Shown: positions 11,432 to 51,367 of the stretch, in pieces
Position numbering within the stretch: the stretch's first letter is position 1
How the letters are laid out: every line of letters starts with the position of its first letter
NCBI GenBank assembly: GCA_020697715.1
Contig: JAEHCO010000002.1
Span: 252,667 to 316,666, forward strand
Reading direction: 5' to 3'
From: Methanobacteriota archaeon
GTDB taxonomy: Archaea; Thermoplasmatota; Thermoplasmata; SG8-5; JAGLSY01
Length of the DNA: 64,000 bases
The notes under the pieces: model-generated
The model's database searches: none
What the model was told of the DNA's origin: nothing
What the model saw: the letters and a program-made list of their open reading frames with translations, nothing else
Translations under genes and position numbers: made by a program

Positions 11432-11506
11432 GGGCGCGTAGCCTAGCCAGGATATGGCGCTAGCCTTCTAAGCTAGAAGCCAGGGGTTCGAATCCCCTCG
11501 CGTCCG
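11432..11506 (+). tRNA. tRNA-Arg(TCT)
   Basis: Acceptor GGGCGCG/CGCGTCC+G; anticodon arm CTAGC-CTTCTAA-GCTAG; T-arm AGGGG-TTCGAAT-CCCCT. Confidence 0.95.
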
Positions 11507-11529
11507 TTTTTTATTTTTATATAATTAGA

Positions 11530-11643
11530 GGGCGCTAGGTGGATTCGAACAGGGTTCGATGAGATTTTTCTGAATGAAATGGAGAAAAAGCGAGCAAGAC
11601 CGGGATGCTGGAGGCGGACAGGTCGTTGATCCCCTCGCGTCCG
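11530..11643 (+). repeat. tRNA-linked structured unit (type A) ending in a copy of the tRNA-Arg 3' end
   Basis: GGATTCGAAC at 11541; ATCCCCTCGCGTCCG at 11629-11643 is identical to 11492-11506; body similar to the units at tRNA-Leu and tRNA-Gly. Confidence 0.85.
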
Positions 11644-24929: not shown

Positions 24930-25973
24930 TCAAATATGATCGTAGATATTCGCATTGGCCCCACCATGGCCAATGTCTGTTTCTATCTGCTTTAATAACA
25001 ATATTCTTTTGAATGTAGATGGGTGGGTGGACATGAACTCCATCCTGGCGCGCCCACTCTTTGCTTGTTCTTCCATGGCCTTCTGAAGTTCCCTGTCATC
25101 CAGAACTCCATCACCATCCAGATCATACTTGTTCTTGTTCTGCATGATACTGGCGATCTCTCTTTTCGCACTGACCGGATCTCCGATATAAAAGGCTCTG
25201 GCGGCTCCTGGTTTTTCATTTGACAATGAAAGTCCGAAAGTTATCTTGGCAAGTGCCGAGCTGAGGCTGTGCGGGTCGCCCGTGGCTACCGCGGAATAGG
25301 AATCCGCGTAGAACTCTCTCTGCCTTGAAAGTTTCAAAATAAGTAGCTGTGATATGAAATATACCGCATAGCTGATGATCGCGATAATGATGATCGCTCC
25401 AGCATCCCTGTTGCGCCTTCCTCCCCAGAGGAAGCTTCTGGCCAGCATCCAGGCCAGCATGGGTATCGCACTGACGACCGTCATGACAACGACGTCATTG
25501 TGTCTAAGATGGCCGATCTCATGCGCGAGCACACCCTTGACCTCTCTCTGGTTCAGCTTTTCCAGAAGCCCGGTGTGAACTGCCAGAGTTGAACTCTTCC
25601 TTGACCTTCCGAACACGAAAGCATTGGGTGTTGGATCATTGGAAATAGCTAGTTTCGGCATTGGAATGTCCGCTTGCTTTGCCAATTGACTAACTTCTTG
25701 CTCAAGCCAGGGATTTTCACCGGGTTTTAGATACTGAAGACGCGATCCCCATCGTATTATACCCGGGGATATCGCCCATTGTATGAGCATGAATATGCCG
25801 ACAAAGAAGAATATCAAAATAAGCTGGCCGATAATATTGACGGTTCCATTGTAATACCACATGATGAATTCGAATATCAGCATGATGAACACGAACAGAA
25901 GTCCGAATATCATGATGAGGGTGAGAGCCATGCTCCTTTTGAGTGCGCCAAGTGAGGCCATTGTGTCCGGCAT
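24930..25973 (-). CDS. htpX: Zinc metalloprotease HtpX (M48)
   Basis: PNAFVFG, VLAHEIGH, SRQREFYAD and STHP motifs. Confidence 0.9.
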   Translation of the reverse strand: MPDTMASLGALKRSMALTLIMIFGLLFVFIMLIFEFIMWYYNGTVNIIGQLILIFFFVGIFMLIQWAISPGIIRWGSRLQYLKPGENPWLEQEVSQLAKQADIPMPKLAISNDPTPNAFVFGRSRKSSTLAVHTGLLEKLNQREVKGVLAHEIGHLRHNDVVVMTVVSAIPMLAWMLARSFLWGGRRNRDAGAIIIIAIISYAVYFISQLLILKLSRQREFYADSYSAVATGDPHSLSSALAKITFGLSLSNEKPGAARAFYIGDPVSAKREIASIMQNKNKYDLDGDGVLDDRELQKAMEEQAKSGRARMEFMSTHPSTFKRILLLKQIETDIGHGGANANIYDHI

Positions 25974-26074
25974 GATAATTTCAAGATATAAGGATATCGG
26001 CGGAAAATATACACAATCCAATCAAACATTATATAAACATCTTGATTTTACAGGGTTTACCCAAAGAACACCAT

Positions 26075-26158
26075 GCGGGGATAGCCAAGCCTGGTCAACG
26101 GCGCTAGATTCAGGGTCTAGTTCTTAGTGATTCGCCGGTTCGAATCCGGTTCCCCGCA
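26075..26158 (+). tRNA. tRNA-Leu(CAG)
   Basis: Acceptor GCGGGGA/TCCCCGC+A; anticodon arm CTAGA-TTCAGGG-TCTAG; long variable arm; T-arm GCCGG-TTCGAAT-CCGGT. Confidence 0.95.
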
Positions 26159-26170
26159 TTTTTCATTATA

Positions 26171-26258
26171 GGATTCGAACGAAGTTCGATCGAGAATTTA
26201 TTCATAAATTCGAGAGAGCACCGCAACGAAGTGTAGGTGCGAAATCCGGTTCCCCGCA
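26171..26258 (+). repeat. tRNA-linked structured unit 1 (type A)
   Basis: Starts GGATTCGAAC-GAA-GTTCGA; ends AATCCGGTTCCCCGCA (26243-26258, identical to 26143-26158). Confidence 0.85.
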
Positions 26259-26270
26259 CCTTGTTTTATA

Positions 26271-26416
26271 GGATTCGATAGTAGTAGTCGGTTGCCGTAA
26301 ACCCACCATTTTCATTCAGCTAAACTCGAAGCCAGACGTATGCTTCGAGAATTTGGGTTTATGGCCTACGATGGGAACATCATGCCAGGGGCATATCGTT
26401 CACACGGTTCCCCGCA
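26271..26416 (+). repeat. tRNA-linked structured unit 2 (type B)
   Basis: Starts GGATTCGA; ends CGGTTCCCCGCA (26405-26416); homologous to unit 3. Confidence 0.85.
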
Positions 26417-26496
26417 TTTTTCATTTTTAGATGCGACTTCACCCATAGAACCCACGCATCTATTTTATCAAACTCATTTATGTGTTTGATTCGATA

Positions 26497-26647
26497 GGAT
26501 TCGAAAGTAGTAAACGGTTGCCGTATGCTCATCGAAAAATATTCATCTGAACTCGAAGCAAGACGTAAGCTTCGAGATTTTGAGCATATGGTCTACGGAT
26601 GTGAACATCATGCCAAAGGCATATCGTTCACACGGTTCCCCGCACCA
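26497..26647 (+). repeat. tRNA-linked structured unit 3 (type B), ends in CCA
   Basis: Starts GGATTCGAA; ends CGGTTCCCCGCACCA (26633-26647). Confidence 0.85.
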
Positions 26648-26747
26648 TTTTCTCTATTTTCTAACATCATAGAGGCGGAGAGTTTAGACGAAAGTGATAT
26701 AAGCAATACTTTCGATTTACTTAGGCAAGCGGAGGAGTGGCTGAATA

Positions 26748-27191
26748 ATGGATAAAAAAGGTAAGACGGTTCTATTTGCCAGTATCTTACTAATTATCAT
26801 AATTATCATTGCTGTTTTTATTTCGATTACTGTTTATCAAGACACAGATGATATATTATTAACAGTATCAAAAACTTCTGCGGGGACACATTCTGTAGAT
26901 CTAACGGTTTCAGGCATCAGACCAAATGGTACAGACTCGGTATCATTAGATGATGTTGTAGCCTGGCTCTATTATAATGAATCTCAAACAATGATAAAAT
27001 TGAATGAGGTTTCCCATTTTAAAGACGATTATGTCAACTTCACCTACATCGATATTAATGATAGCCAGACTATTGATGTTGGAGATGTATTCTCTATAGA
27101 ATATCTCAAAGCAGGAGAATTAGGTGTTGATATTGTAAAAGAAGACATTGCTATCCTTACCTTTATAGAGTATTATTCAACCACTCCGTAG
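26748..27191 (+). CDS. Membrane-anchored, possibly pilin-like surface protein
   Basis: MDKKG plus hydrophobic helix; C-terminal DINDSQTIDVGD; GGAG RBS. Confidence 0.6.
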   Translation: MDKKGKTVLFASILLIIIIIIAVFISITVYQDTDDILLTVSKTSAGTHSVDLTVSGIRPNGTDSVSLDDVVAWLYYNESQTMIKLNEVSHFKDDYVNFTYIDINDSQTIDVGDVFSIEYLKAGELGVDIVKEDIAILTFIEYYSTTP

Positions 27192-50974: not shown

Positions 50975-51077
50975 ATGCAGGTGTCGGGATCCATTACTTG
51001 TTGCCAGGGACAACAAGTAACGCTCGTTTTTTCTTCACTATTTTCAGAAAAAACTCGTCGAACTCCGTTCGAATCCC
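50975..51077 (-). repeat. tRNA-linked structured unit (type A) ending in a copy of the tRNA-Gly 3' end
   Basis: Minus strand starts GGGATTCGAAC-GGA-GTTCGA; ATGCAGGTGTCGGGAT at 50975-50990 is identical to 51091-51106. Confidence 0.85.
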
Positions 51078-51091
51078 TATATAAAAATATA

Positions 51092-51165
51092 TGCAGGTGT
51101 CGGGATTCGAACCCGAGTGATTGGCTTGGAAGGCCAAGATCATAGCCAGGCTAGATCACACCTGC
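51092..51165 (-). tRNA. tRNA-Gly(TCC)
   Basis: Acceptor GCAGGTG/CACCTGC+A; anticodon arm TTGGC-CTTCCAA-GCCAA; T-arm TCGGG-TTCGAAT-CCCGA. Confidence 0.95.
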
Positions 51166-51367
51166 ATTCAGACCCAAGTTCGATATTCTTAAGTCAAACG
51201 TGGATTTTGATGGTCGATTATGTGGCCGATATTGTGACCGATATTCTACTGGGAAACCAATAATAGATAAAAACCTATCGAATCATCTGCAGTGCACGAT
51301 AAAGGGGGGGTATTAGGGTCCCTCAGCTAAAGTGCAAGAACAGATCATGATGAGTGTGTTTGAGCCT

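Follow-up and report, generated by a model that had tools for sequence, protein, structure and literature searches.

The REP and BIME sequences, the REPINs with their Y1/RAYT transposases and the miniature elements derived from IS200/IS605 are mostly known from bacteria. The plant-mitochondrial t-elements, mascRNA and the tRNA-like element before archaeal 5S rRNA are tRNA-like processing signals, and archaea also possess split tRNAs and tRNA introns at non-canonical positions. In the Thermococcaceae, elements of 9-23 kb with an integrase inside lie between ~44-bp repeats, as described in PMC9897764. Here we analyse a locus of an archaeon of the class Thermoplasmata in which the gene of tRNA-Leu(CAG) is followed by three copies of its own 3' end, each of them closing a small structured unit. 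The locus lies in a window of 64,000 nt (contig JAEHCO010000002.1, positions 252,667 to 316,666, assembly GCA_020697715.1), by which we mean the whole stretch of DNA that was analysed. We propose, with a probability of about one half, that a pile-up of small non-autonomous structured insertion elements has formed behind tRNA-Leu(CAG), and that the copies of the tRNA tail are target duplications.

Like the REP, BIME and REPIN sequences, the units are ~100 nt long, non-coding, multi-copy, hairpin-rich and strand-specific, they are placed at gene 3' ends and can be nested, and their host has a single-copy Y1 transposase of the IS200 type. Unlike the REP sequences and the REPINs, they carry direct copies of the 3' end of the neighbouring gene (and, in the family that we call A, inverted copies as well), family A is found only behind tRNA genes, and the transposase scores below the RAYT cut-off. 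As at the tRNA attachment (att) sites described in PMC9897764, the 3' part of a complete tRNA gene is found again, as a direct copy, behind that gene; unlike the integrase-bearing elements described there, the units are gene-free and only 85-230 nt long, with tail repeats of 11-38 nt, and they occur at a third of all tRNA genes of the genome. A limited search of the literature brought up casposon papers and this study on tRNA gene fragments, whose supplementary tables may list small ones, but no account of such units.

The repeated tail consists of the last 12-16 nt of tRNA-Leu(CAG). Its 12-nt form is found again at ends 26258, 26416 and 26644, the first of these copies having 16 nt in common with the tRNA, and one 8-mer opens every unit of the array, at 26171, 26271 and 26497. 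The original prediction, made on this same DNA, had reported these ends together with that of the tRNA (26158), the common unit start and the lack of an encoded CCA in the tRNA gene; our repeat search recovered the four ends, the same 8-mer was found at the three starts, and ARAGORN and Rfam agreed with the sequence on the tRNA. The features of the locus are the following.

26075-26158, plus strand: tRNA-Leu(CAG), complete, without encoded CCA (sequence, ARAGORN, Rfam RF00005 at 49.6 bits).
26159-26170, plus strand: T-rich spacer between the tRNA and unit A, seen in the sequence; it recurs after the A tail in the same-genus genome.
26171-26180, plus strand: 5' arm of unit A, an inverted repeat that is the exact reverse complement (10/10) of the tRNA T-loop region 26138-26147.
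26184-26189, plus strand: unit A, 3' strand of helix P2, in the model alignment a sense copy of the T-stem end and the first half of the T loop.
26191-26214, plus strand: unit A, helix P3 of the minimum free energy (MFE) fold, with conserved GAG flanks on both sides (tandem G.A); 9/9 pairs covary in the family.
26218-26240, plus strand: unit A, helix P4 of the MFE fold; 6/6 outer pairs covary.
26243-26258, plus strand: tail of unit A, a 16-nt direct copy from the T loop to the discriminator, whose first 5 nt pair with the 5' arm (P1).
26268-26416, plus strand: unit B1, with an A-like 5' arm, a long hairpin, a 3' hairpin and a 12-nt tail at 26405-26416.
26417-26493, plus strand: element M, two hairpins with a T run between them, inserted where a T-rich spacer separates B1 from B2.
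26494-26644, plus strand: unit B2, with its tail at 26633-26644.

From tail to tail the periods are 100, 158 and 228 nt. The division of the intervals into two unit types, also part of the prediction, holds for the first interval, which is of type A, measures exactly 100 nt and has no kinship to intervals 2 and 3 (type B); it needed revision for the third, which is not simply a longer B and consists of the dispersed 77-nt element M followed by B2. B1 and B2 share 84-94% identity across three ungapped segments. In the long hairpin of B1, 26294-26305 pairs with 26354-26365 and encloses an inner hairpin, and the long stem of B2 (26521-26531 with 26581-26591) is an allele common among dispersed B cores. 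The repetition of the tail is real and far from chance: in the source genome (34 contigs, 2.12 Mb, 94% complete, 45% G+C) its 11-nt form occurs 4 times, in tRNA-Leu(CAG) and its three copies, against a random expectation of ~1 match per 11-mer genome-wide. The letters CC and CCA after the first and the last copy, to which the prediction had drawn attention, are present in the sequence, but since the same-genus relative has other letters after the last copy we take them as chance and have rejected CCA as a meaningful feature of that copy.

The same arrangement recurs throughout the genome. Once the three weakest of 38 Rfam tRNA matches had been dropped, the last 10 nt recurred exactly on the same strand no more than 500 nt downstream for 11 of the remaining 35 tRNAs, and upstream for 0/35; in the cross-control the tail of one tRNA was found behind another in 2 of 1188 pairs, one of which is a pair of adjacent tRNA genes. 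An antisense 10-mer of the last 24 nt of the tRNA, with at most one mismatch, lies within 120 nt downstream of 12/35 tRNAs and upstream of 3/35 (cross-control, 149/1190). tRNA-Arg(CCG), which bears an intron and is absent from the list of 35 tRNAs, is a further unit-bearing case, and at least 12 tRNA genes of the source genome have a structured unit ending in their own 3' end. A T run follows every unit tail. In a genome of the same genus, the tail recurs downstream of its own tRNA in 11 of the 32 examined. Each of the three tRNAs of the window has a unit; the two besides tRNA-Leu(CAG) are listed here.

11432-11643, plus strand: tRNA-Arg(TCT) at 11432-11506 with a type A unit at 11530-11643 (model score 98.3 bits).
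50976-51166, minus strand: tRNA-Gly(TCC) at 51092-51165 with a type A unit at 50976-51080 (model score 94.7 bits).

The unit of tRNA-Arg(TCT) has an extra 5' strand that pairs with its tail. The second tRNA-Leu of the source genome (TAG) is followed by A and then B (85% identity), and the tails behind it match the slightly different 3' end of that tRNA. The units behind tRNA-Gly(GCC) (C11:438478-438720) and tRNA-His (C11:836889-837150) share a further core type, with 75% identity. The tail copy of the His unit is degenerate, and six other occurrences of the His tail elsewhere in the genome stand in unrelated coding contexts and were discarded as chance. Behind tRNA-Thr(GGT) (C28:143933-144300) we observed the tRNA-Ala(GGC) tail in copy and two near-perfect antisense copies of the 3' end of tRNA-Thr(GGT) itself; the Thr tail does not occur there in sense orientation.

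Family A has a conserved fold. Our model of it, built from 10 units with an architecture taken from MFE folds, comprises the closing helix P1, three hairpins (P2 of 6 bp, the longer P3, and P4) and the tail; P3 is flanked on both sides by conserved GAG that forms tandem G.A. In the 10 seed sequences 91% of the cells are paired, against 77.5% in shuffles, and in 41 matches from many genomes (38 distinct) the values are 91.4% and 64.7%, figures to be read with the caveat that the structure was derived from the same sequences and the large alignment was fitted to the model. In these 41 matches 28 of 31 pairs have changed on both sides, with 30-48% in controls with slid partners. Within the paired columns G.U exceeds A.C by 44 to 6 when read on the tRNA-sense strand; therefore, the fold is selected on that strand, either as RNA or as single-stranded DNA.

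The anatomy of these units follows that of the tRNA. The 5' arm is the antisense of the T arm of the cognate tRNA and reaches the acceptor strand in some units, the purine of the P2 3' strand equals T-loop position 57 of the cognate tRNA in 31 of 32 distinct units, and the 3' strand of P1 together with the tail gives the remainder of the tRNA down to the discriminator. From these alignments, a type A unit is best described as an inverted repeat of the tRNA 3' region, the sense arm of which is split between positions 57 and 58 by P3 and P4. Its predicted fold is a four-way junction resembling a cloverleaf, after which comes the tail, either single-stranded or closed into a stem. For Arg, Lys, Ala, Ser and Cys, the MFE folds of the units show the tail closed by an additional 5' strand into an acceptor-like stem with a discriminator base, and in the Ala unit the G.U of the tRNA gives way to a Watson-Crick pair. 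The folds of the Leu, Gly and Glu units, those of the Leu(CAG) array among them, leave the tail unpaired and have no 5' acceptor strand.

The modelled acceptor-like stem and discriminator downstream of a gene, in the five types of unit that have them, recall the t-elements and mascRNA, although no tRNA model (ARAGORN, Rfam) recognises any of the units and the Leu units lack the 5' acceptor strand. With Rfam 15, only tRNA was matched in the whole window at the gathering threshold, in 25900-26900 at E<=10 and at 8 further unit loci at E<=1. The interruption of a tRNA 3' segment, here in the T loop, with a complement of the flanks of the interruption in front of it, is reminiscent of split tRNAs and tRNA introns; unlike in those systems, an intact tRNA gene stands just upstream and the unit lacks the 5' two thirds of a tRNA. 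No bulge-helix-bulge motif is obvious in the units, for which no formal search was made. The P3 and P4 hairpins of the model, with their conserved flanks and the bias of G.U over A.C, would fit the strand-specific subterminal hairpins of IS200/IS605 elements. In the Arg and Gly units of the window, short motifs are common to the terminal loops of P3 (11560-11590 and 51030-51055) and may resemble an L7Ae-type K-loop.

The link to tRNA genes extends beyond the source genome, in which all 8 model matches with E<0.01 lie directly behind tRNAs. Family A was found in 17 of 151 genomes of the class, belonging to four families of the order of the source genome and to three others. Of 41 aligned matches 40 were examined, one duplicate sequence having been dropped, and a tRNA lies within 450 nt upstream on the same strand in 35 of them. 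First units begin 7-50 nt behind the tRNA. Under a strict suffix test, 8 or more terminal nt are common to unit and tRNA in 23 of the 35, and 7 more visibly match the tRNA end with an offset, failing the test because the model ends 2-3 nt early. The tRNAs served are those for Arg (four anticodons), Lys, Gly, Glu, Ala, Trp, Ser, Leu (four), Gln and His. For one unit pair of another genome (G031, contig C3) the putative tRNA stretch upstream is masked as an N run. The exact unit motif was found at 12 loci among species representatives, 7 of them in Thermoplasmata-type records of metagenome-assembled genomes (MAGs), where a tRNA lies directly upstream in 6 and a contig end in 1; the 5 bacterial loci are inside coding-looking sequence with no tRNA, and were rejected as chance.

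The comparison with the same-genus relative shows that units come and go. The unit behind tRNA-Cys(GCA) is present in the source genome and absent in the relative, in which the flank that here follows the distal Cys copy (CCA included) comes right after the tRNA; the unit of tRNA-Ala(CGC) shows the reverse pattern, absent here and present in the relative. The Leu(CAG) array reads tRNA-A-B in the relative versus tRNA-A-B1-M-B2 here, so that the composition of the array, at a locus whose unit number and order the original prediction had wished to see compared across strains or reads, differs between the two species. The nearest relative of the Arg(TCT), Glu, Gly and Leu(CAG) units is their positional orthologue in the other species, and for the Lys and Arg(CCT) units it is a unit of the same genome. 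Neighbouring tandem units in other genomes are identical or nearly so, the last copies of arrays are sometimes truncated or tail-less, and the Lys and Gly units of the relative have decayed tails. tRNA-Glu(CTC) and tRNA-Leu(TAG) have acceptor stems that are not the same in the two species, and the unit tails follow suit.

The other elements of the locus belong to dispersed families. The type B core has 9 copies in the source genome, and only the three B copies at tRNA-Leu genes possess a 5' arm and a tail; in its long stem G.U is kept in 12 of 13 sequences and 3 of 19 pairs covary. B1 and B2 are related to each other and to dispersed copies in mosaic fashion. Element M, with 9 matches in the source genome and many copies across the genomes of the family, sits in T runs, also inside units of a sister family, S, and between tRNAs and their units, as it does at one tRNA of the relative. 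Family S (the Ser(GGA) core, ~100 nt and structured) has 13 copies in the source genome, one of them at C11:817700-818600, and tens of copies per genome in this archaeal family. Seven of the 13 copies are flanked by direct repeats of 23-82 nt, 2 by repeats of only 9-10 nt and 4 by none. Among the seven with long repeats, 5 span the stop codon of the upstream open reading frame (ORF; 94-606 aa) and 2 are at tRNA-type ends, and in two relatives the orthologous site of one ORF-linked S copy is empty. Family S has duplicated its target.

Insertion with target duplication is the simplest account of the tail copies, because unrelated cores share one frame, empty sites exist, elements are nested, and duplications are found at ORF ends. 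We propose that the elements settle at gene 3' ends and leave a second copy of the last 11-82 nt of the gene on their far side, which behind a tRNA gene would be a copy of the tRNA tail. Further insertions, and tandem duplication from one tail repeat to another, would then lengthen the arrays, and family A would be specialised on tRNA genes. The Leu(CAG) locus, in which a single type A unit precedes two of type B with one M nested between the latter, may record no fewer than two separate acquisitions (A and B), plus a duplication or second insertion of B and one insertion of M. The moving form would be a single strand, DNA or RNA, of the tRNA-sense polarity. The earlier idea of serial polar insertions at an att site survives in this account as far as an origin by insertion with duplication of the tail is concerned, for which empty sites, differing arrays and family S speak; the polar chronological record was not borne out, given the identical tandem duplicates elsewhere and the mosaic of B1 and B2.

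Which enzyme could move these elements? Only one candidate was seen. The source genome encodes one IS200-type Y1 transposase (C1:16359-17144; 116 bits with NF033573, cut-off 55), which is not of the RAYT type (NF047646, 23.8 bits against a cut-off of 80), and the gene is present in 3 of 5 genomes of the family. It occurs in 14 of 17 unit-positive and in 41 of 134 negative genomes, a difference of little weight among related genomes that are not independent. Its flanks have only ~70 nt of promoter-like sequence common to three genomes and no common end hairpins. The 3' end of the gene overlaps a convergent MsrB-like ORF, and adjoining it we observed an unusual tRNA whose variable arm is long and whose acceptor stem is Ser-like, read by ARAGORN as having the anticodon GAA, with a large palindrome behind it.

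Several results weigh against insertion. IS200/IS605 elements are not known to make a target duplication on insertion, unlike the units, with their direct flanking repeats of up to 82 nt. No enzyme matching the elements was identified among Cas1, reverse transcriptase, TnpB and local integrases: Cas1 (PF01867) was found in 0/5 genomes of the family, with the control matched in 7/14, RVT_1 only in the other genus of the family (genome G004), and no match to the TnpB zinc-ribbon domain was above the cut-off. The genomes being MAGs, 74-94% complete, these absences are weak evidence. The Leu(CAG) units showed no terminal inverted repeats, the exact unit motif had 0 matches in viral contigs, and the model search found no copy of family A away from a tRNA in the source genome. 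The conservation of family A points in the same direction. Its 5' arm is specific for each tRNA, and in five positional pairs of orthologues (Gly was left out because the copy of the relative is decayed and misaligned) only 3 of 45 tail columns differ, 2 of the 3 tracking a change of the tRNA itself, compared with 60 of 158 unpaired columns and 58 of 273 stem columns. The changed stem pairs comprise 14 compensatory, 11 one-sided and 13 broken ones. The conservation of tail, arm and fold speaks for selection or conversion at each locus, as expected of a working RNA, and insertion leaves the tRNA-specific antisense arm, the constant 57/58 split and the strong conservation of the tail unexplained.

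A possible alternative, in line with the second idea of the original prediction (a transcript cut into tRNA-ended RNAs) and in our view clearly less probable, is that the units encode working small RNAs tied to the tRNA, transcribed with it or just after it and having a tRNA-like 3' end, perhaps with CCA. Such an RNA could act as a decoy, as an antisense of the T arm or as a partner of the 5' strand, its 3' end could be cut by the tRNA 3'-processing enzyme, and the tail would be under selection instead of being a by-product. We keep this explanation because the arm, the 57/58 split and the tail conservation are predicted by a working RNA, or else by a base-pairing step in insertion. The retention of the fold on the tRNA-sense strand (the excess of G.U over A.C), tails that follow the acceptor stems of Glu(CTC) and Leu(TAG) between species, the compensatory changes between positional orthologues, the T run after every tail and the acceptor-like stem that closes the tail in the Arg, Lys, Ala, Ser and Cys units all argue for it, as does the finding that Trp, Ser(GCT), Gly(TCC) and Leu(AAG) carry units in different families of the class. 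However, units appear and disappear between close species, some tails are decayed (for example in the Lys and Gly units of the relative), terminal copies are truncated or tail-less, unrelated cores (A, B, S, a type D and simple hairpins) stand in the same frame, and family S makes the same duplication behind protein genes. The Watson-Crick pair that replaces the acceptor-stem G.U in the Ala unit also argues against charging. Insertion and function as RNA are not mutually exclusive.

A bolder and rather unlikely reading is that a third of the tRNA genes in these archaea each possess a "shadow" RNA, cloverleaf-like, with the T arm in antisense and sense and the exact 3' strand as its tail. Either selection would keep the tail and the RNA would act on its cognate tRNA in quality control, as a decoy or in defence, or the tail would home by base pairing to the tRNA gene, which would amount to a tRNA-templated, guide-like insertion without a known recombinase.

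Considerably less probable is an origin as by-products of replication or repair, in which template switching at forks stalled behind highly transcribed genes would copy a hairpin-rich segment of another site and then jump back upstream, duplicating the gene end directly and at times in inverted form, with no dedicated enzyme and no function. The failure to find a dedicated enzyme, the variable length of the duplications (11-82 nt), the occurrence of both inverted and direct target copies and the position of the sites at gene 3' ends would fit such a process, but it would hardly maintain the family A fold over family-level divergence, place the split always at the same T-loop position or keep a strict orientation.

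We give slightly less credit still to scars of classical site-specific integration, that is, to larger plasmids or viruses that an integrase brought in at the tRNA and that later lost their interior by deletion, so that just their two ends would remain from attL to attR. A hallmark of such integration is the direct repetition of the tRNA 3' part, and in the same-genus genome an integrase lies directly beside tRNA-Glu(TTC). Against this, the intervals at Leu(CAG) measure only 100-228 nt and contain no genes, the ORFs listed between the tail copies being short overlaps without a Pfam match; their interior is a conserved, covarying fold and not a decaying remnant; a single unit family, its arms adapted to each, serves 15 or more tRNA types; the unit motif is without a match in viral contigs; and the single tyrosine recombinase of the source genome is far from the unit loci. 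The array is flanked by genes for an M48 peptidase and FtsY, and no integrase was found near it. The classical att site contained in the original prediction is thus not supported.

A polar array of the casposase or CRISPR type made by Cas1, with the tRNA as leader and the tail as repeat, is close to refuted: casposons do insert at tRNA 3' ends with duplications of ~14-15 bp, several tails measure 15-16 nt, and both systems share the tRNA 3' end as insertion site, the short duplication and the potential for arrays, but the genomes of the family yielded no Cas1, terminal inverted repeats are lacking, the "spacers" are homologous, interrelated structured units and not captured foreign DNA, the repeat length varies from 11 to 38 nt and the spacing of the Leu(CAG) array is irregular.

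What would these elements mean for the Thermoplasmata? If insertion is the right account, the class harbours undescribed tiny structured elements at gene 3' ends, one family of which is built from the T arm and the 3' strand of its target tRNA. For annotation, the genomes hold partial tRNA copies and an RNA-like unit family that is unlisted and present in about one in nine genomes of the class. For transposition, target duplications would be long and variable, with no matching enzyme found so far. The sister species, with their empty and filled sites, together with the defined folds and junctions (T-loop position 57/58 and the discriminator), offer material for experiments. For tRNA biology, a tail that follows the changes of the acceptor stem calls for conversion or function.

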